Shown here: positions 3,137 to 53,315 of the stretch, one piece after another
Numbering within the stretch: position 1 is the stretch's first letter
Layout: each line of letters starts with the position of its first letter
DNA from: Candidatus Doudnabacteria bacterium
Lineage (GTDB): Bacteria > Patescibacteriota > Doudnabacteria > UBA920
Length of the DNA stretch: 64,000 nt
Direction: 5' to 3'
NCBI GenBank assembly: GCA_963768175.1
Contig: CAVYGQ010000001.1
Span: forward strand, 382,305 to 446,304
Made by a program: the position numbers and the translations under genes
Notes under the pieces: model-generated
Told to the model about the DNA's origin: nothing
The model's database searches: none
What the model saw: only the letters and a program-made list of their open reading frames with translations

Positions 3137-4054
3137 CTAAATTTTTAAATATTTTCGGATAGCCATCATTGACGAAACCACGGAAAGCAACAACGCCAAC
3201 GCAAACAGGATCAAAACCAAATAGCCAAAATGAAACAGGCTGTTTCCGTAAAGATTTACCTGTGGGTTAACGTAAGCAATAACTTTGGGCAAAAATTTGT
3301 AAAAAACCGGAATAAACAAGGCCCCGGTAATTATTGTGGAAAAAATGCTGTATAAAACGCTCTCGGTTAAAAACGGCCCGCGGATATACCAATTGGTGGC
3401 CCCGACCAGGCGCATAATTTCCACCTCTTCTTTGCGGTTGTAGATGGTCAGGGTTATGGTGTTAAATATAACCAAAATGGCAATGAGCGTAAAAACCGCA
3501 ACCAGGGCCAGGCCAAATGTCACCACAAATTTTAGAATTTTATTTAAGCGGTCTATAACTACCCGGTTGTCCTCAAAATTTACTTTATCGATAAAACTTT
3601 TATACTGGTCCGATTCCAGATTTTGGGCTACTGCGGGATAATCGCCCAAATTGTACGTTTTTATATGCAATGTCGCGGGCAAGGGATTTTGGGTAAGTTC
3701 ATTTAAAGCCTGGGTTATTAAAGGATCGCTGTTGTGCGCTGCTTTAAAATTATCAAAAGCCTGGACAGCTGAAACGTAATCGACTTCCTTAATTCTTGGG
3801 TCTTGGGAAATTTCATCTTTAATTTTGGTAATCTGGTCTTCCGCTAAGCCGATTTTAAAATATACACTGACATCCACGGTATTTTGGATGGTATGAATGG
3901 AATAATTGGTTAAAATAAATACCAAAAACAAAGTAGAAAAAATTACCAGCGTAACGGTCATAACTATGGTGGCGGCCATAGACAGCCAAAAATTACGCCA
4001 AAAATTGACGAAACCGATTTTTATTACCCGCAAAAAAGAAATTGAATCCATCAT
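3137..4054 (-). CDS. ftsX: cell division permease FtsX
   Basis: 305 aa with 4 TM helices and a large extracytoplasmic loop, immediately downstream of ftsE. FtsX-like topology and conserved C-terminal TM bundle. Confidence 0.85.
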   Translation of the reverse strand: MMDSISFLRVIKIGFVNFWRNFWLSMAATIVMTVTLVIFSTLFLVFILTNYSIHTIQNTVDVSVYFKIGLAEDQITKIKDEISQDPRIKEVDYVSAVQAFDNFKAAHNSDPLITQALNELTQNPLPATLHIKTYNLGDYPAVAQNLESDQYKSFIDKVNFEDNRVVIDRLNKILKFVVTFGLALVAVFTLIAILVIFNTITLTIYNRKEEVEIMRLVGATNWYIRGPFLTESVLYSIFSTIITGALFIPVFYKFLPKVIAYVNPQVNLYGNSLFHFGYLVLILFALALLLSVVSSMMAIRKYLKI

Positions 4055-4057
4055 AAA

Positions 4058-4195
4058 ACAATGACAAAAATTAAAAAAATTAAATAAATGCCAAAAACGG
4101 CAGTTTACTGCCGTCCCGAATGGAATGAGGGATCCCTCGGATGCACTCGGGATGACAGCTATATAATAAATAGCGGTTTGTCATTTTTGCTCATT
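4058..4195. repeat. composite intergenic palindromic element: family A (TGACAAAAAT) with a nested family B core (gtcccgaatggaatgagggatccctcggatgcactcgggatgac)
   Basis: aatgacaaaaattaaaaaaat...ggcagtttactgcc hairpin, then a B core, then the inverted half gtttgtcatttttgctcatt. It lies between the ftsE stop and the ftsX start. Confidence 0.7.
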
Positions 4196-8808: not shown

Positions 8809-9369
8809 TTATTTGATATTTGAAATTGGAAATTTGAAATTACTTATTATTTCGTCAACTTTCTTATACAACTCCTTTATGCTCCCAATGTTATCTATGC
8901 GATAATCGGCCCGTTTGCCCATTTCCGGAATGCTGATTTCCGTCAACTCTTTTTCCTGTTCCCGAAATTCCTGAAAATTCATGACAGCATCGTCAATTTT
9001 TTCACGGCGGATTTGATAACGCGCAAAACGGACGTCAAAAGGCGCGGTCACGTAAATAATCTTCGCGCCCAAATCCTTAACCGCCCTTTCCTGTTCGTCC
9101 ATGCGCAAACCATTGATCACGGATACGCCTGTTTTGGAAGCTTTGGCTCTTTCTGCCAAAACCCTGTATAAAATCTCGTTGCCGAATATATTTCTCAAAC
9201 CCAAGCCCAAATCAATTTCGTTCCGGCGCGATTTTGGCAAACGCAATAAATCCAAAATTTCATCCAAAATCTGGCTGAACTTAACGCTAAAGGCGCCATA
9301 CTGTTTTTCCAAGTATCTGGCGACTGTGTCTTTACCAGCGAGTTTTTCTCCAACAAGACCAATAATCAT
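8809..9369 (-). CDS. P-loop NTPase, putative (deoxy)nucleotide/nucleoside kinase (paralog 1)
   Basis: 186 aa; the N-terminal P-loop GLVGEKLAGKDT is atypical, with D at the Ser/Thr position. The C-terminal block ADYRIDNIGSIKELYKKVDEII is shared with the paralog at 9988-10542. It sits inside the dTTP-synthesis gene cluster. Confidence 0.45.
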   Translation of the reverse strand: MIIGLVGEKLAGKDTVARYLEKQYGAFSVKFSQILDEILDLLRLPKSRRNEIDLGLGLRNIFGNEILYRVLAERAKASKTGVSVINGLRMDEQERAVKDLGAKIIYVTAPFDVRFARYQIRREKIDDAVMNFQEFREQEKELTEISIPEMGKRADYRIDNIGSIKELYKKVDEIISNFKFPISNIK

Positions 9370-9373
9370 AAAA

Positions 9374-9468
9374 CTAATGACAAAAATTAAATAAATGACA
9401 AAATTGACAAAAATAATAAGCTAAGTATTTTTTTAATTTTTGCTCATTTTCGCCATTTTTGCTCATTA
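9374..9468. repeat. family A intergenic palindromic element (aatgacaaaaattaaataaatgacaaaattgacaaaaat ... atttttgctcattttcgccatttttgctcatt)
   Basis: Inverted halves built on TGACAAAA / TTTTGCTCA units, between the kinase start and the dut stop. Confidence 0.75.
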
Positions 9469-9906
9469 AATATTATAACCTCCGGTACTCCCAATCCCTC
9501 CCCTATCCACATCGCGCAAAGCGTTTACCTCTTTCCACTGCGCCTGTTCGGATTTTAAAAATATTCCTTGCGCCAATCGCTCGCCTTTTTTTACTCCCAC
9601 AGGCGCACCGGTAAAATTATACACTATTATATAGACTTCGTCGTTCGGTCCCGCGTAGTCCGGATCCACCACGCCTATGCCGTTGGCCATAGCCAAACCC
9701 TTTTTTAAAGGCAGGCTACTACGGGCGGCTATAAGCAAAAAATGGCCTTTGGGAGCCGCAATTACCAATCCCGTAGGTATTTTTGCCACCTCGCCGGGAG
9801 CTACCGTTACGTTAGCCGCCGAAGCAATATCAAACCCGGCGGATTCGGAAGTATGGTATTTGGGAAGTTTAATATTTTTGCTTAATCTCTTTATTTTAGC
9901 CTTCAT
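9466..9906 (-). CDS. dut: dUTP diphosphatase
   Basis: dUTPase motifs SAGFDI, ARSSL, GVVDPDYAGP and RGGIGSTGGY. Confidence 0.9.
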   Translation of the reverse strand: MKAKIKRLSKNIKLPKYHTSESAGFDIASAANVTVAPGEVAKIPTGLVIAAPKGHFLLIAARSSLPLKKGLAMANGIGVVDPDYAGPNDEVYIIVYNFTGAPVGVKKGERLAQGIFLKSEQAQWKEVNALRDVDRGGIGSTGGYNI

Positions 9907-9929
9907 AGAATAAATGACAAGATTGATAA

Positions 9930-9990
9930 GATTTAAATGATTGACAAGAATAGCTGTACAGAATTCTTGTCATTCATGTCATTGTTGTCA
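9930..9990. repeat. variant family A-like palindrome (gattgacaagaatagctgtacagaattcttgtcattcatgtcattgttgtcattc)
   Basis: Carries a GTCATT-type inverted repeat around a central agctgtacag core. Confidence 0.5.
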
Positions 9991-10542
9991 TTCTTTTAAT
10001 TTGATTAATATTTCATCAATCTTCCCAAACAACTCCTCTAAACTTCCTTCATTCACAATCGTCCAATCCGCACGCGCTATGGGGCCGGCTTGATTTAAAT
10101 TTTCAATCTGGGATTTGTCGCGTGATTCCAGTTCTTGTGCGGAAAGCGGCCTTTGCGGCCGTTTAGCCATGCGGGCCGCGCGCGTCGAAAAAGAAGAATA
10201 TATCGCTAAAACCTTAAATGCCTGCCCAAATTCTTTTTCCATAGCCAAGGACTCTTCCCAGCTGTATAAGCTTTCTATAATAACCGATGATGTTACAAAA
10301 AATTTTTTTACGGCCAGCAAATTGGCAACTGCCATTGCGGCCATGCCGTTTTGGGATCGAAATTCTTCGCGAACTAACTTCTCGTTTGCCTCGCTTAAAG
10401 ACAAACCGCGCTTTTGAACTTCATCCAAAACAGCCTGCCCGAAATAAACTTTGGGCCAACTAGTCTTCTTAAGCAGATAATCGGTTGTTTCTGTTTTTCC
10501 GGCTCCGGCTAAACCAACCACGGCAAGAACAATATTTGACAT
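9988..10542 (-). CDS. P-loop NTPase, putative (deoxy)nucleotide/nucleoside kinase (paralog 2)
   Basis: 184 aa; P-loop VVGLAGAGKTE, and the C-terminus ADWTIVNEGSLEELFGKIDEIL is paralogous to 8809-9369. Confidence 0.45.
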   Translation of the reverse strand: MSNIVLAVVGLAGAGKTETTDYLLKKTSWPKVYFGQAVLDEVQKRGLSLSEANEKLVREEFRSQNGMAAMAVANLLAVKKFFVTSSVIIESLYSWEESLAMEKEFGQAFKVLAIYSSFSTRAARMAKRPQRPLSAQELESRDKSQIENLNQAGPIARADWTIVNEGSLEELFGKIDEILIKLKE

Positions 10543-10545
10543 AGA

Positions 10546-10642
10546 TTAAATGACAAAAATTAAATAAATGACAAAATTGACAAAAATGCAAATCAGCTAA
10601 TTTTTTAATTTTTATTATTTTTGCTCATTTTTGTCATTTCCC
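10546..10642. repeat. family A intergenic palindromic element
   Basis: taaatgacaaaaattaaataaatgacaaaattgacaaaaatgc ... atttttgctcatttttgtcatttcc. Confidence 0.75.
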
Positions 10643-11163
10643 ATTTTTACCCTGCCTTCGTTTTGGCGAACCGGTATGTCTTCGGAAAAAATCTGTCCCA
10701 ATTCCCGCTGCCATTTTGGGTTTTCGGCATAAATTTCCACTTTTACCCCGGCTTCTTTAAGCATATCCAAAGCGGCGGGGTTCCTGTAAACTTTGCCGAT
10801 GACAACTCTTTTAACGCCGGCGGCAATAACATATTTGGCGCAGTGGATGCATGGGCTGTACTTGGTATACATTGTGGAGCCGTCCGTACTGGTACCACCC
10901 TGCTTGGCCGCCTGAAGCAGCGAATTATGTTCGCCGTGGATAGTGCGCACGCAATGCCCTTCTTCCAAAAGATGCCCGACGTCGTCGCAGTGCGGCAGGC
11001 CCGGCGGCGAGCCGTTATAGCCCGTGGCGATTATGCGGTTATCTTTTACCAAAACCGAACCCGCGTACAGCCGGTCGCAGGTCCCCCTAGAAGCCACAAT
11101 TTTGACTATTGCCATGAAATAATCGTCCCAAGAAGGCCTAAAATGCTTGCGTTCTTCTACCAT
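10615..11163 (-). CDS. dCMP deaminase (ComEB/CDA fold)
   Basis: Zinc ligands HAEHNSLL and PCIHCAKYV, typical of the deoxycytidylate deaminase family. The likely start is MVEERKHF at 11163. Confidence 0.85.
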   Translation of the reverse strand: MVEERKHFRPSWDDYFMAIVKIVASRGTCDRLYAGSVLVKDNRIIATGYNGSPPGLPHCDDVGHLLEEGHCVRTIHGEHNSLLQAAKQGGTSTDGSTMYTKYSPCIHCAKYVIAAGVKRVVIGKVYRNPAALDMLKEAGVKVEIYAENPKWQRELGQIFSEDIPVRQNEGRVKMGNDKNEQK

Positions 11164-11265
11164 AGTATTAACGACAAGAATGACATGATTGGGCAAGAAT
11201 GGCAAAAATTACAAATCTAAATCGTGTCAATCTTTTAATTCTTTTAAATCTTGCTCATTTCATCT
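11164..11265. repeat. degenerate family A-like element
   Basis: gacaagaatgacatgattgggcaagaatggcaaaaatt ... tcttgctcatttcatc. Confidence 0.4.
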
Positions 11266-11354
11266 ATTCTACACCAATTTTGGCCGGTTGACAAAATCCA
11301 AAAAAACAAAAAAACCTTAATAAATTAAACAGTTTTGGACGTCTTTTATCCTTT

Positions 11355-11388
11355 TGTTGCACTTACGCCCGGCCGAGCGTAAGTGCAA
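11355..11388. promoter_or_regulatory. perfect hairpin/palindrome GTTGCACTTACGCC-CGGCCG-AGCGTAAGTGCAAC abutting the -35 of promoter P_A
   Basis: 14-bp arms; operator- or terminator-like. Confidence 0.5.
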
Positions 11389-11390
11389 CA

Positions 11391-11419
11391 GTTGACAAAA
11401 AACTTTAAATGCCTTAAAA
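11391..11419 (+). promoter_or_regulatory. near-consensus sigma70 promoter P_A (TTGACA-17-TAAAAT)
   Basis: TTGACA at 11391-11396, a 17-nt spacer, and TAAAAT at 11414-11419. Confidence 0.6.
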
Positions 11420-11427
11420 TACCCACA

Positions 11428-11505
11428 AATGAGCAAATTCATCTCTTCCAGCATAATCATTATTATTACTCCGACGCCGCTTGGCATGGGAAGAGTTTTA
11501 GTGTA
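11428..11505 (+). CDS. 25-codon leaderless ORF MSKFISSSIIIIITPTPLGMGRVLV (leader-peptide-like or small hydrophobic peptide)
   Basis: The ATG lies about 8 nt after the -10. Five consecutive Ile codons (ata atc att att att) occupy 11452-11466. Stop TAA at 11503. An intrinsic terminator follows 20 nt downstream. Confidence 0.45.
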
Positions 11506-11524
11506 AATTGATTTAAACTCCAAA

Positions 11525-11553
11525 CCCCTAGCCTAAGCGGCTAGGGGTTTTTT
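11525..11553 (+). terminator. intrinsic terminator CCCCTAGCC-taa-GCGGCTAGGGG + T6
   Basis: Stem-loop followed by TTTTTT. Confidence 0.7.
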
Positions 11554-11715
11554 GTTGATGATTTTGTAGTGTGCCGATTTATCGGCCTTCATCGATCGCC
11601 CATAAATGGGCACGCTACACTTGTGACCGGAAAGACGGCAATTTAATAAAACTGCTATCTTTGCGGCCAGAATCTGTGGCCGAATCCAAGACAAACCCAA
11701 GGAGGGCAACTAAAG

Positions 11716-12008
11716 TGAGCTGGCATATATACGACGCGACAGTAGCATCGCGGCAGGAAGATGGCACCATAGCTGTGCATTTGGTAGGCGCAGACATGGA
11801 GCCGCTCAGCATTAGCGGAACTGTGCTGATGGCAGAACGACTGACCACCATTGTGGTCCACAGCACCGTAACCGATAGCGGCAAACCGCTGTTCACTCCG
11901 CGCAACGATGTACTCTACCTTGATCCGGAATCCGGAAAGGCAGCGTACGATCCTTCCGTACTCGTTCCCGGCCTCGAGGCCGAGGAACCTTCTCTCGTAG
12001 GGGTCTGA
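11716..12008 (+). CDS. hypothetical small protein (97 aa), GC-rich (about 58%)
   Basis: GTG start 7 nt after a perfect SD AAGGAGG. Composition is foreign relative to the flanks. A terminator lies at 12039-12086. The alternative upstream GTG at 11571 lacks an SD. Confidence 0.5.
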
Positions 12009-12038
12009 TATGAAAAACCCCAAAACAGCTCTTTCTTC

Positions 12039-12086
12039 CGGCAGTCGGCGTGCTTTCAGGTCGCCGCCGACTGCCCACCCTTTTTT
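12039..12086 (+). terminator. intrinsic terminator CGGCAGTCGGCG...CGCCGCCGACTGCC + T6
   Basis: GC-rich stem followed by cacccTTTTTT. Confidence 0.7.
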
Positions 12087-12092
12087 ACAAAT

Positions 12093-12121
12093 TTGACAAA
12101 CTTTTACCAATCCTTTAATAT
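12093..12121 (+). promoter_or_regulatory. near-consensus sigma70 promoter P_B (TTGACA-17-TAATAT)
   Basis: TTGACA at 12093-12098 and TAATAT at 12116-12121. Confidence 0.6.
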
Positions 12122-12128
12122 ACCAACA

Positions 12129-12224
12129 ATGCACCGAAATAATTTAAACAATTTAAACCTCTTGCTTAGCCTCCTTACTTTTGTAAGGGGTTTTGGGCTT
12201 AGATTGCAAGCATCTCCGGTATAA
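12129..12224 (+). CDS. 31-codon leaderless ORF MHRNNLNNLNLLLSLLTFVRGFGLRLQASPV (Leu-rich leader-peptide-like)
   Basis: The ATG lies at the predicted TSS. There are 5 Leu in a 6-residue run (LLLSLL) and 3 more upstream. Stop TAA at 12222. A terminator follows 26 nt downstream. Confidence 0.45.
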   Translation: MHRNNLNNLNLLLSLLTFVRGFGLRLQASPV

Positions 12225-12250
12225 ATTTTAGGCAAATCTAATTTTCCTTA

Positions 12251-12271
12251 AGCCCCGCAAGGGGCTTTTTT
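12251..12271 (+). terminator. intrinsic terminator AGCCCC-gcaa-GGGGCT + T6
   Basis: Stem-loop followed by TTTTTT. Confidence 0.7.
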
Positions 12272-12344
12272 GTTGATAGAAAAATGTTTATCGTTTTGGT
12301 GAATATTTTTGTATCTATAAATTCTATGTTCAAGGAGGATAGAG

Positions 12345-12677
12345 GTGATACACCTAGTGGGAATTAAAGCATTCCAGAGTTACGAATCTCACGCAGAAGC
12401 TGTTTTCCTTATCGGCGGAAAGGAAGTCAGAGACACGATTACCGCAATTGACCGAATCAGCGTGAATAAAGTCAAAGGGTTCCAATTGCAGTTTGGCGCA
12501 CTGATGGTCGTGCTATTCCCCGATATTAACGGCGGTGTGGGCGCCGCCAGTGACGGCGATGAGACGCTGGAGGAATTGCAGCGCGCAATACCTCCGTTTC
12601 TCGGGACATCCGGCAACAGATACCCCAACCCGGATGACGATCCGGTTACCTGGGTCGCCGCTCGTTGCGGGATCTAA
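12345..12677 (+). CDS. hypothetical small protein (110 aa), GC-rich
   Basis: GTG start 6 nt after SD AGGAGG. A terminator lies at 12737-12779. No recognisable domain. Confidence 0.5.
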   Translation: MIHLVGIKAFQSYESHAEAVFLIGGKEVRDTITAIDRISVNKVKGFQLQFGALMVVLFPDINGGVGAASDGDETLEELQRAIPPFLGTSGNRYPNPDDDPVTWVAARCGI

Positions 12678-12736
12678 CCATACTGCTTCACCTCGCCTGC
12701 CCAAGCCCACCGGCCAAAGCAGGCAAACGCAACAAA

Positions 12737-12779
12737 GCCGGCAGACGCAAACCTACGCTGCCGGCTTCATCATTTTTTT
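12737..12779 (+). terminator. intrinsic terminator GCCGGCAG...CTGCCGGC + T7
   Basis: Stem-loop followed by ttcatcaTTTTTTT. Confidence 0.65.
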
Positions 12780-12854
12780 GAATTTCAAAAAATCATTATC
12801 AGCACTCTGTTTCACCAGCATCCCCCAAGCCAGAGACGGCGTTGAAAAAACACA

Positions 12855-13295
12855 TTAGTGAAAATTTTTAGAAAAATCCACTATTTCATAATTCGGCGGG
12901 GGGTCGCCTTTAAATAATTTTTCCTGGACAACTTTTAAAATCTCTTCAAAATTGTTCTCTGACTTTATCAAATACGCTTCTACGTTCAAACTCTTGGCCT
13001 CTTCCATTTCTTCCATACCGGAAAGGTTACTTAATACTATGACCGAAGTGTTGGCAATATTTTTGTCGGGATATTCCCGAATTCTTTTTAAAACATCCAA
13101 GCCTTTAATCTTCGGCAACAGCAAATCCAAAATTATTAATTTGGGCAAATGGAAGAGCAGTTTTTCCATTGCCTGTGAGCCGTCCTCGGCTATAGCGACT
13201 TCAAGTCCGTGTCCGGAAAGATAAGCGCTCAGGGCATTGCGAAAATCCAAATCATCCTCAATAATTAAGACTTTTTTTGAATTGTCGTCTGTCAT
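12855..13295 (-). CDS. single-domain response regulator (receiver/CheY-like)
   Basis: KVLIIEDDLDFRN, phospho-acceptor region ILDLLLPK, conserved T/S and K positions. There is no output domain. Confidence 0.85.
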   Translation of the reverse strand: MTDDNSKKVLIIEDDLDFRNALSAYLSGHGLEVAIAEDGSQAMEKLLFHLPKLIILDLLLPKIKGLDVLKRIREYPDKNIANTSVIVLSNLSGMEEMEEAKSLNVEAYLIKSENNFEEILKVVQEKLFKGDPPPNYEIVDFSKNFH

Positions 13296-13364
13296 AAAAA
13301 AAATTTAATTTTTTTAGATTACCTACCTTAGACTAAGTCACTGGCTGATGAACATTATCCGTTT

Positions 13365-13471
13365 TAGTAAACCCAGCACTAATTTTCCATCATACTCAAA
13401 TTTTTTTGTAATATATTTTGACACAAGTATTTTTCATCAAAATGTCAATTAAAGTGAAAATTAGTGCTGGG
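13365..13471. repeat. family D element: 16-bp terminal inverted repeats CCCAGCACTAATTTTC / GAAAATTAGTGCTGGG enclosing about 75 bp
   Basis: The right arm supplies the last 3 codons and the stop of the receiver gene at 13461-13895. A second copy is at 59715-59820. Confidence 0.6.
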
Positions 13472-13895
13472 TAAAATCCCACACTTCTTGGGTCTTTGCT
13501 TGGCTACTTCCAAACAAAATTTCTTTGATTTTGCCCATAACTTCTTTGGTCTTTGTCCGACTTTTAACAAAGTAGGCTAAAACGCCCATTTCCTGCCCCT
13601 TTTCAATATCGGCTTGGCTGGAGAGATTGCTCAAAATTATTACCGGCGTCTTGGCAATGTCTTCCTGCGGATAGCTTCTGATTCTTTTTAACACCTCAAA
13701 ACCGTGGACTTTTGGTAAAAGTAAATCCAAAACTACTATATCGGGATTTTGCGCCAACAGCCTTTCCATAGCCTGTTCACCGTCATCGGCTGCGCTTACG
13801 GAGAAGCCCTCAGCGGCTAAGGCGTCACGCAGGGAATTGCGAAAATCCAGATCGTCCTCAATAATTAAGATCTTTTTGAACATGTCGTCGGACAT
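13461..13895 (-). CDS. single-domain response regulator (receiver), paralog
   Basis: KILIIEDDLDFRN and VLDLLLPKVHG; paralogous to 12855-13295 and 18697-19101. Confidence 0.85.
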   Translation of the reverse strand: MSDDMFKKILIIEDDLDFRNSLRDALAAEGFSVSAADDGEQAMERLLAQNPDIVVLDLLLPKVHGFEVLKRIRSYPQEDIAKTPVIILSNLSSQADIEKGQEMGVLAYFVKSRTKTKEVMGKIKEILFGSSQAKTQEVWDFTQH

Positions 13896-14010
13896 GGCAA
13901 ATAGTGGATTACGGATAAAAAATGCAAGACTAATATCAATATACCAAAAACAGTCACGTTTTACAACGGGGCTGTTTTAACTTGCCACTTGTAACTTATC
14001 GCCCACCACC

Positions 14011-14694
14011 CTACATCTTCACCCTTATCCCCGGACCCATGGTAGAATTAACGGAAACAGAAGCGATAAATTGGCCCTTTATTGTAGAGGGTTTGCTTTG
14101 CAAAACCGCCTGATACAAGACTTTTAAATTTTCCAGTAATGCTTTGCTATCAAAATTGCTTTTACCGATAATTTGGTGGATATTGCCGCTGTCGTCATTT
14201 TTAAAGTTTACCTTGCCGCCGGCAATTTCCTTAATCAGCGCGCCAACATTGGCTCCCACAGTGCCGGTTTTGGGGTTGGGCATCAGGCCGCGAGTACCCA
14301 AAATCTTGGCTATTTGAGCCAATTTTGGCATTAAGACAGGCTCTGCCACGGCTACGTCAAAGTCGGTTTTCTCGGTTTCTTTAATTTTTTTAATCAGCTC
14401 TTCCCCGCCGATCACTGCCGCTCCGGCTTCCTTGGCTTCCTTTTCCTTGGCCTCGGTAACGAAAGCCGCCACTTTCTTGGTTTTGCCGCTGCCGTGAGGC
14501 AGGCTCACGGTGCCGCGAACGGCCTGGTCGGTTTTTTTGGCGTCTATTAATGTACGGACATGCACTTCCACAGACCCCGTAAACTTGGTATTGGCGGTCT
14601 TTTTGGCCAGTTCAATGGCCTCTTCAGGCGTATAGATTTTATCGACATCTACAAGCGCATTATTGGCTTTTACTCTTTTGGCAATTTTTGCCAT
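14011..14694 (-). CDS. rplA: 50S ribosomal protein L1
   Basis: 227 aa; MAKIAKRVKA...FTGSVEVHVRT...VRGTVSLPHGSGK matches the L1 consensus. Confidence 0.9.
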   Translation of the reverse strand: MAKIAKRVKANNALVDVDKIYTPEEAIELAKKTANTKFTGSVEVHVRTLIDAKKTDQAVRGTVSLPHGSGKTKKVAAFVTEAKEKEAKEAGAAVIGGEELIKKIKETEKTDFDVAVAEPVLMPKLAQIAKILGTRGLMPNPKTGTVGANVGALIKEIAGGKVNFKNDDSGNIHQIIGKSNFDSKALLENLKVLYQAVLQSKPSTIKGQFIASVSVNSTMGPGIRVKM

Positions 14695-14793
14695 AAACCT
14701 TTTCCTTTCGTGGTGTTAGTAAGTCCACATTCATACAGTCGTGTATGAATGTATCGCTCTCCCACAAATTAATTATTCTTATTTTTTATATAT

Positions 14794-15063
14794 TTAATTA
14801 TTTTCGCCGAGCGCTCTAGGCTCCATTATTGAAAGAAGGCGCTTTTTCGCAGCTTCATAACTTAACCTTGAACCTTTTTCTTTTTTCAACCTCATTAAAA
14901 CAAGCGTTGCTTGTTTTAATGCTTCTTCCCATTCTTCTTTTGGTGCATCATTTGGAAGGAAAAGATTTAGGGCATCCGCCACTGCTTCCGGGGTTTTACA
15001 AATGCTAAATGTTCGCTCCCAATCAACCCCTTCTCCACCAACAAAACGATATTCGCTAACCAT
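14794..15063 (-). CDS. hypothetical protein (89 aa)
   Basis: ORF between the SPFH gene and rplA; no recognisable motif. Confidence 0.35.
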   Translation of the reverse strand: MVSEYRFVGGEGVDWERTFSICKTPEAVADALNLFLPNDAPKEEWEEALKQATLVLMRLKKEKGSRLSYEAAKKRLLSIMEPRALGENN

Positions 15064-15065
15064 AT

Positions 15066-15830
15066 CTAATCTCCTTTTCGTTCCCCTGCCAAGAAAGCTC
15101 GTATGTCTTTAACCGTGCTCATAAACTGGGCCGGGAAGATTATGGTGGAATTTTTTTCTACCGATATTTCCGCCATCGTCTGTAAATTCCGCAGTTGCAA
15201 GGCAATCGGATGCTTAGCGATAACGTCCGCGGCGTCGGCCAATTTCTGCGCGGAGAGGAATTCTCCTTCCGCGGCAATTATCTTGGCGCGCTTTTCGCGT
15301 TCGGCCTCGGCCTGCTTAGCCATAGCCCGTTGCATATTTTCCGGCAGTTCAATATCTTTAATTTCCACCAAGGACACAATTACGCCCCACGGCTCGGTGT
15401 GCGTGTCCAAAACCGTCCTGATTTCCTGGTTAATAGTCACCCTTTCGGAAAGAATCTCATCTAACTGGAACTTGCCAACAATATTGCGGATGGTGGTTTG
15501 CGCTATTTGGTTAATGGCTGACATCACATTCTCAATAGCCACGATGCTTTTGACCGCGTCCACTACCTGATAATAGGCCACGGCGGAAATATCTACAGAG
15601 ACATTATCTTTAGTGATTATTTTTTGCGGCGGAATCGGCAAAGTAATGGTGCGCAAATCCACTTTTCGGACTTTGTCTATATACGGAATGACCATAGTTA
15701 AACCCGGCTGCTTAATACCGACGATTTTCCCGAAGCGGAATACCACGCCTTTTTGGTACTGCTGGATAACGCGGAAGGCGGGAAGGATAAAGAAAACAAA
15801 GATGATGATGACTAACGAGAGAATGTCCAT
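15066..15830 (-). CDS. SPFH/band-7 (stomatin/prohibitin-like) membrane protein
   Basis: N-terminal TM helix, an SPFH core, and a C-terminal coiled coil (AKQAEAEREKRAKIIAAEGEF). Confidence 0.8.
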   Translation of the reverse strand: MDILSLVIIIFVFFILPAFRVIQQYQKGVVFRFGKIVGIKQPGLTMVIPYIDKVRKVDLRTITLPIPPQKIITKDNVSVDISAVAYYQVVDAVKSIVAIENVMSAINQIAQTTIRNIVGKFQLDEILSERVTINQEIRTVLDTHTEPWGVIVSLVEIKDIELPENMQRAMAKQAEAEREKRAKIIAAEGEFLSAQKLADAADVIAKHPIALQLRNLQTMAEISVEKNSTIIFPAQFMSTVKDIRAFLAGERKGD

Positions 15831-15837
15831 AGGGTTA

Positions 15838-15930
15838 AATGAGCAAAAATGACATAATTGACAAAAATGAGCAAAAATTACTGCAGCTCTATTTTCGTCG
15901 TTTTTGTCACTTTTTTAATTTTTGTCATTA
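15838..15930. repeat. family A intergenic palindromic element with a central CTGCAG core
   Basis: aaatgagcaaaaatgacataattgacaaaaatgagcaaaaattactgcagct ... tttttgtcacttttttaatttttgtcatt. Confidence 0.75.
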
Positions 15931-16350
15931 ATCAATTACTTCCACTCCCATGCTCCTGCACGTGCCGCGGATAATTTTTTCGGCGGCGGCAAGGTCGTTG
16001 GCGTTTAAATCCTGCATTTTCTTTTCCGCAATCTCCCGCACTTGTTTGGCGGTGATTTTGCCGACTTTTGTGGTTAAAGGATTTGCGGACCCTTTTGCCA
16101 AACCGATGGCTTTCATAATTAAATTGGAAGCCGGCGGAGTTTTAAGGACAAAACTAAAAGACCGGTCTTCGTAAATGGTCATTTGCACCGGGATAATCAT
16201 ATCCCCACCCGCGGTTTTATCGTTAAATTCTTTAACAAACTGGGCAATGTTAATGCCGTGGGGACCGAGCGCGGTGCCAACCGGCGGCGCCGGGGTAGCC
16301 TTGCCTGCCGGAAGCTGGAGCTTTAACTGAACTTTGATCTTTTTAGCCAT
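15928..16350 (-). CDS. rplK: 50S ribosomal protein L11
   Basis: [35 protein letters not shown] matches the L11 N-domain. Confidence 0.9.
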
Positions 16351-17508: not shown

Positions 17509-18054
17509 TTAGCGCTTAATAAAAAATAAAACAGATATTAATAAGACTAGCTCCACATAAAAGGTCCAACTGGTAACGTAAACTTTAAGAAAATTAAACC
17601 AATATTCAAAAAAACTTTTGCCCGCGATTTTTTCCTCAACTCCGCGGTTTTTAAACGCCCAAATTTCTTTGTTAAACGGCCATAACCACATTATCCCGTA
17701 CAAGTCTATACTGTCCAGCAAAAAATGGCTCCAGCTCCCCAACCACACAATCAGCCCAAACATTTTATAGTACGGGCTCTGCGCAAAAAAATAAACCAGC
17801 AGCCCGGCAACCAGCCACAAAACAGGCAAATGGCTGTAAAATCTCCTGTGGATAGTGCTATCCGTACCTGGCTTGTACCACCAGGCCCGGACTTTGGCAA
17901 AAGCGACAAAATTATCCAAATCCGGCGCAAAGCCGAAGAATGCCCCCCACCAAAGCAATTGGGTTTGCTGCGGCTGGGTTAACCCCGTATGGGTAAAATA
18001 TAAAAGAGCTTTGGCCGTTAAAAAACCAGCGGCAATATGGCCCGGTGGTAACAT
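17509..18054 (-). CDS. membrane-bound metal-dependent hydrolase (YdjM/DUF457-like), hypothetical
   Basis: MLPPGHIAAGFL start, multiple TM helices and His-rich positions. The ORF-track N-terminal extension (Cys/His/Phe-rich) is probably not translated. Confidence 0.45.
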   Translation of the reverse strand: MLPPGHIAAGFLTAKALLYFTHTGLTQPQQTQLLWWGAFFGFAPDLDNFVAFAKVRAWWYKPGTDSTIHRRFYSHLPVLWLVAGLLVYFFAQSPYYKMFGLIVWLGSWSHFLLDSIDLYGIMWLWPFNKEIWAFKNRGVEEKIAGKSFFEYWFNFLKVYVTSWTFYVELVLLISVLFFIKR

Positions 18055-18057
18055 AAT

Positions 18058-18300
18058 GAAATGACAAAAATTAAAAAAATAATAAAAATGACAAAAGTGA
18101 CAAAAACGGCATTTATGCCGTCCCGAATGGAATGAGGGATCCCCCAACTTCGTTTCGGGACGATATCTATAATAATATTAAAAATAAGGTTTATCGTTTT
18201 TGTTCATTTCCGTCCGCCTCGGCTCGCGCTCGCCTCGATTCGACAATCAAGTCGAAGCGGGCCGAGCGAGACGGGTCGTTTTTGTCATTTCTGTCATTAG
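18058..18300. repeat. composite family A + family B element plus an extra GC hairpin
   Basis: atgacaaaaattaaaaaaataataaaaatgacaaaagtgacaaaaac, then ggcatttatgcc-gtcccgaatggaatgagggatccc (the B core), then a long imperfect hairpin cggctcgcgctcgcctcgattcgac...gtcgaagcgggccgagcgag, and finally ttttgtcatttctgtcatt. Confidence 0.7.
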
Positions 18301-23277: not shown

Positions 23278-23814
23278 TTATCTCACCACTCCCCTGCGGC
23301 GGATATCCATATTGTCCACAAAATTCCTTAAAAAAGTAAAAAATAAATACACGGGGTACAACAGCAGCCAATTGTAAAAAAAATTTACCAAAAACTGCGA
23401 AATAAAAATTTTTATTCCGGTGTATTGGACGGTCCAGCTTAACTTAAAAGCCATTAACCCATAAACCCAAATAATAAGGCTGAAAAAAGCCAAAGCCACC
23501 AGCAAAACCGCGCTTAAAGTTTTCCAGTTAAGCTCCGCCAATAATACGTTGGTCACGAACAAATGAGCGCACAGGGACACGACCAAAAAAGCCAAAGTAA
23601 AACCGCCAAAAAAACTCCCGGAATAAAAATCCAAAAACAGGCCCGAAATTAAGGCGATGAAAAAAAAGTCGTAATCTTTTTTTTCCAAAGCGAAAAACAG
23701 AGTTAACAAAAACAGTAAATTGGGAATCTGGCTTTGAATTTGCAGATTGTTAAATAAACCCAAATTCACTCCCAGTAAAATTATTATGGCGATGAGGTAA
23801 ATGAGATACTTCAT
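23278..23814 (-). CDS. mreD: rod shape-determining protein MreD
   Basis: 178 aa polytopic membrane protein in the conserved position between mreC and mrdA. Confidence 0.6.
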   Translation of the reverse strand: MKYLIYLIAIIILLGVNLGLFNNLQIQSQIPNLLFLLTLFFALEKKDYDFFFIALISGLFLDFYSGSFFGGFTLAFLVVSLCAHLFVTNVLLAELNWKTLSAVLLVALAFFSLIIWVYGLMAFKLSWTVQYTGIKIFISQFLVNFFYNWLLLYPVYLFFTFLRNFVDNMDIRRRGVVR

Positions 23815-23817
23815 ACA

Positions 23818-23912
23818 TTCAATGACAAAAATTAAAAAAATGACAAAATTGACAAAAATATACTGCAGCTAATTTTTGCTCATTTCCTTCGTTTTCGTCA
23901 TTTTTGTTCATT
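23818..23912. repeat. family A intergenic palindromic element (about 95% identical to the 24721-24815 copy)
   Basis: aatgacaaaaattaaaaaaatgacaaaattgacaaaaatatactgcagctaatttttgctcatttccttcgttttcgtcatttttgttcattt. Confidence 0.8.
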
Positions 23913-23915
23913 TGG

Positions 23916-24716
23916 TTACTGTTTAACCACGAACACAAACTGCAAGTTGTCAAAATCTATGGGGCTAAGCAGGGCGGCCCTTTTAAACAGGTCGTTATCC
24001 GATGACAAAATATCGCTGACCTGACCGATTAAAATATTTTTGGGAATTTTTGCGTTTATGCCCGCGGTAACCACCAGCCAGCCCTTTTGCAAATCGGAGG
24101 TTTGCTGGACCTGGTCTAAAATCAACCCGGAACCAAAAGAGCCTTTAACCAAGGCCGTGGCGTTGGTTTGACTGACACGGGCGTCGGTAGAAAAGTTGGA
24201 ATCGGTGATGAGTAGCACGGTGCAGGATGAAGGTCCGGCGTAAATAATTTTTCCCACCAAATAGCCCTGGGAAATAACCGCCTGGCCCTCGTTTACGCCG
24301 TCACGGCTTCCGCAATTCAAAATCAAGGCATTGGTTTGGCCGAAAGGATTTTCTGACAACACCGTGCAGGCCACTAAAGGCTGAGAAGTATTTTTTACAA
24401 ACCCCAATTCCGCCCGAAGCGCCTGATTTTCCAGGCTTTGCTGGTTTTTGTCCACCAACTGCTGCTCCAGCTGCACCACCTGGGCCCTAAGTTGTCCGTT
24501 CTCCTGGCTGATTTTATCCAATTGATAAATAGTGGAAAAAAAAGTCTTTACAGGATGAGTAACGCCGTTAACCAGTGCCACGACCGGCCGGGGAACCTCC
24601 AAAAAAGCTATTCTAATAGGGTCCAGCCAACCTTTAAACTGCAGGAACACCAAAAACGCGAGCGCCAAAACGCAAGCCCCAAAAATCACAAAAGCTTTAG
24701 TATAAATAAAACGCAT
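23916..24716 (-). CDS. mreC: rod shape-determining protein MreC
   Basis: N-terminal TM, coiled coil (QLRAQVVQLEQQLVDKNQ), beta-rich C-domain, downstream of mreB. Confidence 0.8.
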   Translation of the reverse strand: MRFIYTKAFVIFGACVLALAFLVFLQFKGWLDPIRIAFLEVPRPVVALVNGVTHPVKTFFSTIYQLDKISQENGQLRAQVVQLEQQLVDKNQQSLENQALRAELGFVKNTSQPLVACTVLSENPFGQTNALILNCGSRDGVNEGQAVISQGYLVGKIIYAGPSSCTVLLITDSNFSTDARVSQTNATALVKGSFGSGLILDQVQQTSDLQKGWLVVTAGINAKIPKNILIGQVSDILSSDNDLFKRAALLSPIDFDNLQFVFVVKQ

Positions 24717-24720
24717 AAGA

Positions 24721-24815
24721 CTAATGACAAAAATTAAAAAAATGACAAAATTGACAAAAATACACTGCAGCTAATTTTTACTCATTTCCGTCGTTTTTGT
24801 CATTTTTGCTCATTT
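24721..24815. repeat. family A intergenic palindromic element
   Basis: ctaatgacaaaaattaaaaaaatgacaaaattgacaaaaatacactgcagctaatttttactcatttccgtcgtttttgtcatttttgctcattt. Confidence 0.8.
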
Positions 24816-31792: not shown

Positions 31793-31883
31793 AACAATGA
31801 TGTAGTTTTTCGATTTCTATGTTTAAATTATAACATCAAAAACCGCTTTAAGCAAAAAGTAGGTTAGGGGCATGTCTCGCTAA

Positions 31884-31926
31884 CAAGGGGCATCCTTGTG
31901 CTGCACAAGGATGCCCCTTGTTTTTT
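31884..31926 (+). terminator. hairpin CAAGGGGCATCCTTGTGCTGCACAAGGATGCCCCTTG + T6 (family F)
   Basis: 17-bp stem with loop GCTG and a TTTTTT tail. It is oriented for + strand termination although both neighbours are on the minus strand. Confidence 0.6.
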
Positions 31927-31943
31927 AGATAATGCCAAATTTA

Positions 31944-32730: not shown

Positions 32731-32777
32731 TATTTCTTTTTATTGTTATCCCGAACGGAGTAAGGGATCTCTTTACC

Positions 32778-40910: not shown

Positions 40911-41456
40911 ATGATATATCTCTATATTATTATAGTCCTGGCGATTATAGTAATCCTCTTGTTCAACGGCTTAGTCCGCTCCAAAAACCGCGTGGACGAA
41001 GCCTGGAGCGACATAGACGTGCAATTAAAGCGCAGATACGATTTAATCCCGAACTTGGTGGAAACGGTAAAGGGATACGCCGCGCACGAATCGGGTGTGT
41101 TTGAAAAAGTCACCGCCGCGCGCACCGCGGCCATGAGCGCCGGCACAATGGACGATAAATTAAAACAGGAGAACGCCCTGTCTGGCACCTTAAAGAGTTT
41201 GTTTGCGGTGGCGGAAAATTATCCGGACTTAAAAGCCAATGCTAATTTTTTACAGTTGCAGAGCGACTTAACCGATACCGAAGACAAAATCCAGGCCGCC
41301 CGCCGCTTTTACAACGGCAATGTCCGCGACTTCAACACCAAAATCCAGCAATTCCCCGGCAACATGTTTGCTTCCATGTTCGGCTTTACCAAACGCGACT
41401 TCTTTGGGATAGACGAAAGCGGCCCCGAGGCGCAGCCGGTCAAGGTTCAATTTTAA
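40911..41456 (+). CDS. lemA: LemA family protein
   Basis: N-terminal TM plus the LemA core (RRYDLIPNLVETVKGYAAHE, RRFYNGNVRDFN). Confidence 0.85.
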   Translation: MIYLYIIIVLAIIVILLFNGLVRSKNRVDEAWSDIDVQLKRRYDLIPNLVETVKGYAAHESGVFEKVTAARTAAMSAGTMDDKLKQENALSGTLKSLFAVAENYPDLKANANFLQLQSDLTDTEDKIQAARRFYNGNVRDFNTKIQQFPGNMFASMFGFTKRDFFGIDESGPEAQPVKVQF

Positions 41457-41545
41457 TTGAACCTTGACCCCGAGCGAAGCCGAGGGGTGAAAGTGCAATT
41501 TTAATTGAACCTTGACCCCGAGCGAAGCCGAGGGGTGAAAGTGCA
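41430..41545. repeat. tandem repeat (2.4 x 48 bp) beginning with a perfect 14-bp-arm palindrome GGTCAAGGTTCAATT-tt-AATTGAACCTTGACC that spans the lemA stop
   Basis: The unit caattttaattgaaccttgaccccgagcgaagccgaggggtgaaagtg is repeated. It contains the CCCCGAGCGAAGCCGAGGGG motif also seen in the clpC terminator. Confidence 0.7.
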
Positions 41546-53035: not shown

Positions 53036-53100
53036 CAAAATCTAAATTATCTATACTATTTTAGCGGAAAATACGTACCTGGTCAATTTGCTCTTATAAC

Positions 53101-53135
53101 AATGGGCACCATTGTGCTGCACAATGGTGCCCATT
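53101..53135 (+). terminator. hairpin AATGGGCACCATTGTGCTGCACAATGGTGCCCATT (family F, sister of 31884-31926)
   Basis: 15-bp stem with the same GTGCTGCAC loop. The stem differs from the other copy by compensatory substitutions. Confidence 0.55.
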
Positions 53136-53315
53136 GTTTATGATACAAAATTAGCGGTTTTTTGGTTTTAGCGGTAAAATTAAAGTAAAGCAATAAGCTT
53201 TAAAATTAATGGATCTTAGACACTACCGCAAACGTAATACATAAGAGACCCCCCTATTTTATCGTTTTTGCTAAAAATCAGCCTTTGTTGTCTAATAAAC
53301 AGTTACTTGTAACAA

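Follow-up and report, generated by a model that had tools for sequence, protein, structure and literature searches.

The candidate leader and the gene that follows it

The window, by which we mean the whole 64,000-nt stretch analyzed here, comes from the genome of a Candidatus Doudnabacteria bacterium (Patescibacteriota; contig CAVYGQ010000001.1 of assembly GCA_963768175.1, positions 382,305 to 446,304), and this study concerns a compact unit on its plus strand in which a promoter, a 25-codon open reading frame (ORF) with five consecutive Ile codons and an intrinsic terminator precede a gene for a 97-aa protein. The original prediction, made from the letters of the window, had read this unit either as an attenuator-like leader of the downstream gene or as an autonomous, type-I-toxin-like gene for a small hydrophobic peptide. 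The comparative data reported below favor the attenuator-like leader.

All features described here lie on the plus strand unless stated otherwise. The unit opens with a sigma-70-type promoter, composed of TTGACA at 11392-11397, a 17-nt spacer and TAAAAT at 11415-11420, which agrees with the consensus at 11 of 12 positions and was the top promoter-like site that a promoter scan returned within 9000-15000. Only 8 nt downstream of the -10 box, with no Shine-Dalgarno (SD) sequence between the two, lies the ATG of the leader ORF (11429-11506; 25 codons plus stop), which encodes the peptide MSKFISSSIIIIITPTPLGMGRVLV and would be leaderless or nearly so. The five-Ile run (ATA ATC ATT ATT ATT, 11453-11467) supplies the proposed regulatory codons. 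Hairpin P1, which starts 2 nt past the last Ile codon, is formed in the minimum-free-energy fold by segment 1 (TCCGACGCC, 11470-11478) and segment 2 (GGCATGGGA, 11483-11491). Hairpin P2 (GAGTTT...AAACTC, 11493-11520) comes next and holds the stop codon TAA (11504-11506) in its loop, and the intrinsic terminator detected by a terminator scan at 11522-11553 closes the unit, with 12 pairs between segments 3 and 4 (AAACCCCTAGCC-TAAGC-GGCTAGGGGTTT) and a T run. The leader stop codon lies 15 nt before the terminator stem. The gene that follows, referred to here as cargo gene 1 (GTG at 11715 to 12008; 97 aa; GC content 0.57), has the strong SD sequence AAGGAGGG at 11699-11706. Every element that had been described in the original prediction is present, with coordinates that were 1 nt too low; the SD sequence of the next gene was also described correctly, while its start had been placed at 11716.

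For the RNA of 11426-11560, the predicted folding energy is -41 kcal/mol (z = -4.09), which none of 200 shuffled sequences reached. A scan against Rfam matched no family at its gathering score, including the Leu, Thr, His, Trp and Phe leaders, the T-box and PyrR, and the sub-threshold matches were at chance level (PyrR with 20.9 bits against a threshold of 54, and a Phe leader on the opposite strand). No tRNA or transfer-messenger RNA was detected in the region of the unit.

Conservation of the unit in related loci

Related loci, designated below by L numbers, were collected via the neighboring deoxycytidine monophosphate (dCMP) deaminase gene, via a DNA pattern in metagenomes and via relatives of the 97-aa protein. 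The deaminase neighbor gave 80 genome loci, the nearest of which are Patescibacteria metagenome-assembled genomes, and units were present only in L003; look-ups of protein clusters were far more productive, and seven of the eight matches of the DNA pattern were true units. Near-identical sequence is also present in sample ERR10755942 and in the JGI sample of Ga0182027. The units belong to paralogous types with different leader ORFs. Type 1, with the Ile run, comprises 15 distinct homologous units in contigs of related Patescibacteria, the window included, all of which keep the promoter, the Ile run and the terminator, a combination that the original prediction had suggested looking for at orthologous loci. 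A covariance model gives the 13 type-1 units of alignment A6 scores of 110-178 bits, L108 one of 116 bits and L110 one of 86 bits. Since the unit is conserved elsewhere, it is more than a chance arrangement of its parts. Type 2, which is Leu/Asn-rich, comprises eight units (the window copy and seven orthologues), and the Lys/Thr-rich type 3 comprises three units, whose leader peptide is hydrophilic.

The type-2 copy of the window (12093-12276) lies about 700 nt downstream of the type-1 unit and scores 29.5 bits (E = 0.01) with the covariance model, which matches only these two units and no further copy in the 64-kb window. Its promoter is TTGACA-17-TAATAT, its ATG at 12129 follows the -10 box by 7 nt, its Leu/Asn-rich ORF (12129-12224) has 31 codons with the sequence MHRNNLNNLNLLLSLLTFVRGFGLRLQASPV, and its terminator is at 12250-12271. 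The units occupy an island between rplA and the deaminase gene that is missing in some relatives, and their order is kept, with type 1 before type 2 where both are present and type 3 first where it occurs. A phage origin was also considered and was rejected, as the type-1 pattern had no match in IMG/VR.

The start of the leader is conserved. TTGACA is invariant in 13 of 13 aligned type-1 units, and a -10 box is present in all type-1 units. Among 22 inspected units of all types, the ATG follows the -10 box after 7-9 nt in 20 and after 11-12 nt in two, and none has an SD sequence in this interval. These spacings suggest a leaderless start, for which transcription would begin at or 1-2 nt before the AUG. 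The type-1 ORFs are open over 23-27 codons, or 42 codons in L110, although shuffled sequences keep the ORF open about 27% of the time per lineage from composition alone.

Within the ORF, two modes of conservation meet. No type-1 unit lacks the Ile run, in which 7-8 codons include 3-7 Ile in the forms IIIII, IISIIII and IIISIII, and IIT in L108, so the conservation in related genomes on which the original prediction depended was indeed observed. The first positions of the run exchange ATA, ATC and ATT synonymously with period 3, and the length between ATG and run differs by whole codons (multiples of 3). In L110 (311-473), an in-frame insertion of 51 nt gives the 42-codon ORF MQNLHSPKPNICKTISDISAIRVSAIIIIITPSPLGQGRVLA, in which the IIIII run and the terminator are kept. 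Downstream of the run, the blocks CGCCGCTnGGCAnnGGAA and CGCCGCTnGGCAnnGGAAnAGTTT are conserved as nucleotides and substitutions fall in predicted loops and bulges. One group of units has 15 nt between the run and a GGC anchor and the other group has 10 nt, so that the conserved block is read in two frames, giving tails of PLGMGRVLV (PLGMGRVL) or RQWKSLDLA (RQWKS). Types 2 and 3 show the same two-frame behavior. Moreover, all five differences between the ORFs of the window and L082 are non-synonymous and outside the Ile run. Judged from these alignments, the Ile run is conserved in the manner of codons and the remaining ORF in the manner of structured RNA, which is the signature expected of a regulatory leader ORF and not of a functional peptide.

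The hairpins are supported to different degrees. Across 13 type-1 units, 88% of the alignment cells of P1, P2 and the terminator are paired, and their covariation exceeds that of 500 of 500 shuffles. The terminator has compensatory changes at 6 of its 11 pairs; P2 is paired in 97% of cells, with two compensatory pairs that change from GC to AU in five sequences, and P1 is paired in 87% of cells, with pairs that are essentially invariant. The distance from stop codon to terminator stem stays at 11-20 nt in the ten type-1 units measured, despite the frame differences. A long-range stem around the Ile run, P0, had been proposed in the original prediction from the complementary heptamers CTCTTCC (11443-11449) and GGAAGAG (11489-11495). 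It fits the alignment, in which 86% of its cells are paired across 13 sequences, and appears in the minimum-free-energy fold of some orthologues, but its covariation is not significant. In type 2, a long conserved hairpin joins the 5' codons to a G-rich 3' half, and in the window copy GGGCUUA at 12195-12201, found by eye, is perfectly complementary to the terminator arm UAAGCCC.

Cargo genes and the surrounding island

Between the terminator and cargo gene 1 lies a second leader domain (11623-11684), organized as GTGACCGGAAAGA-hairpin-TCTTTGCGG followed by the hairpin GGCCAGAATCTGTGGCC. It is semi-conserved, with 11660-11684 being 100% identical to L082, and related modules of the form GACCGAAAAC..hairpin..GGCC-loop-GGCC occur in L103, L106, L107 and L094. 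A strong hairpin (GTAGTGTGCC...GGCACGCTACAC, 11566-11620), common to the window and L105, separates this domain from the terminator. It is probably an inserted element resembling repetitive extragenic palindromes (REP) or miniature inverted-repeat transposable elements (MITE); in L082, L085, L100, L103 and L104, differing strong hairpins are inserted at the same place of the leader. The promoter scan detected no promoter-like site between the terminator and the 97-aa gene in the window.

Some relatives have REP-like hairpins with CCCTCC/GGAGGG. In the hairpin CCCTCCGAAGCCTTGGCGAAGGAGGG of other loci, the 3' arm GGAGGG(TG) equals the SD sequence of the cargo gene, so its 5' arm could in principle mask that sequence. 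No anti-SD sequence is evident in the window's leader, on which no dedicated analysis was made.

Twenty units have flanking sequence long enough to be assessed, and each is followed on its own strand, within 54-294 nt, by an SD-led ORF of 55-111 aa and then by a terminator-like hairpin; as the cargo finder demanded an SD-like motif, the presence of SD sequences in the related cargo genes is not an independent observation. In the window, the sequence following cargo gene 1 reads as a terminator-like hairpin with a T run (GGCAGTCGGCG...CGCCGACTGCC, 12040-12087), and L108 has this hairpin after its homologous cargo gene. Cargo gene 2 (GTG at 12345 to 12677; 110 aa), behind the type-2 unit, has its SD sequence AAGGAGG at 12332-12338 and a terminator-like hairpin at 12735-12767.

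The 20 cargo proteins, that of cargo gene 2 included, gave no Pfam match and only marginal single-member matches in PADLOC and PHROGs (E of at least 0.01). The cargo-1 protein matched nothing in Pfam, PADLOC or PHROGs; no relatives of it were found in species-representative genomes, and a word-indexed protein search returned the query alone. A full HMMER scan of 1.8 billion representatives found only three short full-length relatives (95, 98 and 104 aa), the remaining matches being partial matches to long multi-stretch proteins. Two of these three, in L108 and L110, are encoded in operons headed by a type-1 leader, and the type-1 cargo of L102 also aligns with the family. The AlphaFold2 model of the cargo-1 protein is a small all-beta protein with a predicted local distance difference test score of 83.5, for which comparison with solved structures gave no convincing fold match.

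Conservation of the leaders does not extend to their cargo genes. Between the window and L082, the deaminases are 92% identical at the protein level and the two leaders 91% and 82% identical, whereas the coding sequences behind both leaders have no detectable similarity. L105 has a leader and hairpin near-identical to those of the window, but its cargo belongs to the family of L082 (MNIQPVSGRQICLGNTK...), unlike the window's 11715-12008. The replacement of cargo begins right at the SD sequence and start codon. The cargo genes of L082 and L105 are homologous and truly coding, with a ratio of nonsynonymous to synonymous substitution rates of 0.43 (74% nucleotide identity; synonymous rate 0.58), and are more diverged than their leaders.

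The island genes use translation signals unlike those of the rest of the genome. The cargo genes of the window's island, and those of related loci, have near-consensus AAGGAGG. Among the long ORFs of the window, 6 of 44 have an SD-like tetramer upstream of the longest-ORF start, a crude count with uncurated starts.

Upstream of the unit, the 14-bp-arm palindrome (TGTTGCACTTACGC at 11355-11368 and GCGTAAGTGCAACA at 11377-11390) is carried by an insertion of about 95 nt (11297-11391), which is flanked by duplicated TTGACAAAA at 11288 and 11392. L082 and L105 are without this insertion; there, the leader -35 box directly abuts ctacaccaattttggccgg and overlaps the -35 box of the divergent promoter of the dCMP deaminase gene (minus strand of the window, 11294-11266). 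On this comparison, the palindrome is not part of the conserved unit, and the insertion looks like a MITE/REP-like element that duplicated its target site and separated two promoters lying back to back.

Other repeats lie elsewhere in the window. Intergenic arrays of AATGACAAA / TTGACAAAA boxes with 9-bp spacing (families D1-D3, inverted repeats I3-I14) occur just upstream of genes at 4052-4105, 9359-9470, 10532-10644, 15830-15931, 18052-18114, 23813-23913 and 24706-24815, and these boxes may be a repeated promoter or operator element. Beside the island, 12855-13295 and 13461-13895 (minus strand) encode adjacent paralogous response regulators that consist of a receiver domain only (Pfam), the 5' ends and upstream regions of which form an 81-nt repeat with 78% identity (D4); the islands of L108, L109, L111 and L112 are likewise bordered by a response-regulator gene. 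An exact 28-nt repeat (TGCCGTCCCGAATGGAATGAGGGATCCC; D13) lies in distant intergenic regions at 4109-4136 and 18116-18143, with a third copy of 75% identity at 32744-32771. In addition, the long perfect palindrome TAACAAGGGGCATCCTTGTGCTGCACAAGGATGCCCCTTGTT occurs at two loci, 31881-31932 and 53097-53148 (D17), and 41438-41533 is a tandem pair of 48-nt units, each with an inverted repeat (D18, I17).

Proposed attenuation mechanism, its rivals and known systems

Sequence comparison establishes the parts of the unit and how they are conserved, the codon-like behavior of the Ile run, the covariation of P2 and the terminator and the linkage to a downstream gene. From these we infer where transcription starts, that the ORF is translated and that ribosomes stall on it, as well as the antiterminator and which way expression is controlled. 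Together, they suggest, with slightly better than even confidence, a cis-acting, leaderless, ribosome-mediated transcription attenuator of which the unit forms the 5' part. The near-consensus promoter would start the RNA at or 1-2 nt before the AUG, and a ribosome would therefore translate the leaderless 25-codon ORF while the RNA emerges. When this ribosome reaches the stop codon in the P2 loop, the terminator would form and an RNA of about 125 nt would be released. If the RNA is untranslated, P1 and P2 would form and lead to termination likewise, which would make termination the default. When charged tRNA-Ile is scarce, however, the ribosome would stall in the Ile run and cover segment 1 (11470-11478), and the G-rich segment 2 (GGCAUGGGA), now free, could pair around P2 with the terminator's 5' arm, which is rich in C. 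Transcription would then continue past the terminator to the second leader domain and to the 97-aa gene with its SD sequence. The unit at 12093-12276 may apply the same logic with Leu/Asn codons to the 110-aa gene.

The stalled state was modelled with the A site on the last Ile codon and the RNA masked to about 9 nt beyond it, such that segment 1 is covered, at a stage when the 3' arm of the terminator has yet to be made. In 10 of 11 scorable units, the best fold of this state joins the G-rich segment 2 (GGCAUGGG) around P2 to the terminator's 5' arm, which is rich in C, with energies of -13 to -20 kcal/mol; the exception is L103, where just 4 of the 10 arm bases are paired, at -8.0 kcal/mol. 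Over ten lineages, native duplexes of segments 2 and 3 average -9.28 kcal/mol against -8.32 +/- 0.40 kcal/mol for permuted ones, with a P of about 0.01 that is optimistic for phylogenetically related sequences. Several further observations count against the attenuator as outlined above. In the window's clade the antiterminator is weak, with 3 + 3 bp around a 2x2 internal loop, and shuffled C-rich 5' arms stabilize the fold similarly (fraction at or below the observed value, 0.07-0.86). Composition-matched arms thus pair about equally well, and the thermodynamics of the antiterminator alone are not specific. Column-wise covariation of the antiterminator in the type-1 alignment is not significant, and P1, which never varies, is for that reason neither supported nor refuted. 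We regard the antiterminator pairing predicted from these sequences as possible and weakly supported. The last three ATT codons of the Ile run are near-invariant as nucleotides, which an A/U-rich RNA motif would also explain, and codons of A/U-rich sequence are in any event biased toward Ile, Asn, Lys and Leu. Finally, the cargo genes have neither a known function nor a tie to Ile or Leu metabolism; as the cargo is unlinked to the amino acid that would be sensed, the classical logic of end-product sensing is absent.

The main rival is a translated cis-regulatory leader that does not sense Ile and responds instead to general translation status, for instance to ribosome availability, to the coupling of transcription and translation or to inhibitors, or to a protein or small RNA that binds A/U-rich or GGA segments. 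The amino-acid runs would then be by-products of A/U-rich or pyrimidine-rich RNA arms. Such a leader would suit cargo genes unrelated to amino-acid metabolism and the invariant ATT ATT ATT of type 1, yet it does not account for the period-3 synonymous swaps at the first Ile positions or for the IIIII run left intact by the 51-nt in-frame insertion of L110. The type-2 Leu codons (CUU, CUC) do sit in the pyrimidine-rich 5' arm of the long conserved hairpin, and that run could therefore be structural. The Ile run, in contrast, forms no pairs in any of the predicted folds, and its conservation is thus not explained by structure; across lineages, each of three paralogous leaders retains the run of a different amino acid. 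Although precedents exist for an upstream ORF and terminator that sense drugs, as in bmrB-bmrCD (PMC4191407) and mef/mel (PMC4335068), we consider a leader blind to Ile rather unlikely.

A second rival, less probable again, is an autonomous small gene, the terminated RNA of about 125 nt acting in trans, possibly with a dual function via its 25-aa peptide, and the downstream gene being independent or reached by incidental read-through. Leader peptides and attenuator RNAs that act in trans have precedents such as peTrpL (PMC7298713), and such a gene would suit the unit's consensus promoter, its strong terminator (-21 kcal/mol) and the discrete, well-folded RNA that these would yield, as well as a leader that is better conserved than the surrounding genes. 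Nevertheless, no orphan unit was found among the 20 with enough flank, all of which precede a same-strand SD-led gene and a second terminator, and the lack of any unit without a cargo gene makes an autonomous small RNA less likely. The absence of a promoter-like site between terminator and gene in the window and of an Rfam match also speaks against it, as does the conserved domain between terminator and SD sequence, which makes sense only if read-through transcripts matter.

The type-I-toxin-like or membrane-peptide alternative of the original prediction did not survive the comparison and is rejected as highly improbable. A short ORF with a hydrophobic IIIII stretch, its own promoter and its own terminator would suit such a gene, but the C-terminal half, read in the two frames PLGMGRVLV and RQWKSLDLA among orthologues, is not conserved, and the type-3 paralogue peptide is Lys/Thr-rich and hydrophilic; a toxin is effectively excluded on these two grounds. 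In addition, the hydrophobic stretch has Ser, Thr and Pro on its flanks and, with 5-8 residues, is not long enough for a membrane-spanning segment, the differences between the window and L082 ORFs are all non-synonymous, and the lone antisense promoter-like site (11487-11459, 9 of 12 matches) has a -35 box that is not kept in orthologues.

More broadly, and as a tentative extension of the attenuator reading, a small regulon may exist in this clade in which leaderless attenuators, arranged in tandem and paralogous to one another, are each tuned to a different aminoacyl-tRNA pool (Ile, Leu/Asn or Lys/Thr) and drive rapidly exchanged small proteins with consensus SD sequences. Such proteins could be effectors or stress proteins for amino-acid starvation or for tRNA depleted by toxins or phages. 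Amino-acid or tRNA sensing would then be uncoupled from amino-acid metabolism. Reduced Patescibacteria, also called the candidate phyla radiation (CPR), are generally thought to lack amino-acid biosynthesis, and leader-peptide attenuation is textbook regulation of biosynthesis; an amino-acid-sensing switch is unexpected in such a genome. Neither in the literature searched nor to our knowledge has leader-peptide attenuation been described in CPR bacteria. If the proposed attenuator works, these reduced, probably host-dependent bacteria would monitor single charged-tRNA pools by ribosome stalling, and not for biosynthesis. The leader would also provide a handle on CPR small proteins, namely the likely condition of their production, and its near-consensus promoter and compact parts of about 170 nt make the switch directly testable by a reporter in a model bacterium.

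The classical attenuators of Escherichia coli, including the ilvGMEDA, ilvBN, leu, thr, trp, his and pheA leaders, share with the unit a short promoter-near ORF with a run of codons for a single amino acid, paralogous leaders with other runs, and an intrinsic terminator before the first structural gene. The hairpin layout is also predicted to let a stalled ribosome free a segment for the 5' arm of the terminator, as in those systems. Unlike them, the ORF of the window has no SD sequence and begins at or next to the predicted 5' end of the transcript, and its cargo consists of small proteins swapped between close relatives instead of biosynthetic operons. The CPR host, whose genome contig measures about 0.95 Mb, the second conserved leader domain past the terminator and the lack of a match to any Rfam leader set it further apart. 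Type I toxin-antitoxin systems likewise have a short ORF with hydrophobic residues and its own promoter and terminator, but the unit has no conserved antisense promoter, its C-terminus is out of frame among orthologues and its hydrophobic segment is too short. By analogy with bmrB-bmrCD of Bacillus subtilis (PMC4191407) and mef/mel (PMC4335068), translation of the upstream ORF may decide whether the terminator forms; those systems sense drug-stalled ribosomes via peptide or codon context and control resistance genes, whereas the unit has a homopolymeric codon run.

In mycobacteria, leaderless short ORFs with polycysteine runs act as attenuators (10.1101/834739). As proposed for the window, a leaderless mRNA opens there with a short ORF in which codons for the sensed amino acid are repeated in a row, and several independent leaders respond to one signal, the 'ribulon' idea. 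The two differ in that an intrinsic terminator lies between ORF and gene in the window, and they have no sequence relationship. A related case is that of the leader peptides, not necessarily leaderless, reported in the 5'-untranslated regions of trpE, leuA, ilvB and aroF of Corynebacterium glutamicum (PMC3890552). The cargo of actinobacterial leaders metabolizes the sensed amino acid, a link that the cargo of the window does not have. Judged by its sequence features, the unit probably works like an attenuator, as a variant outside any described family.

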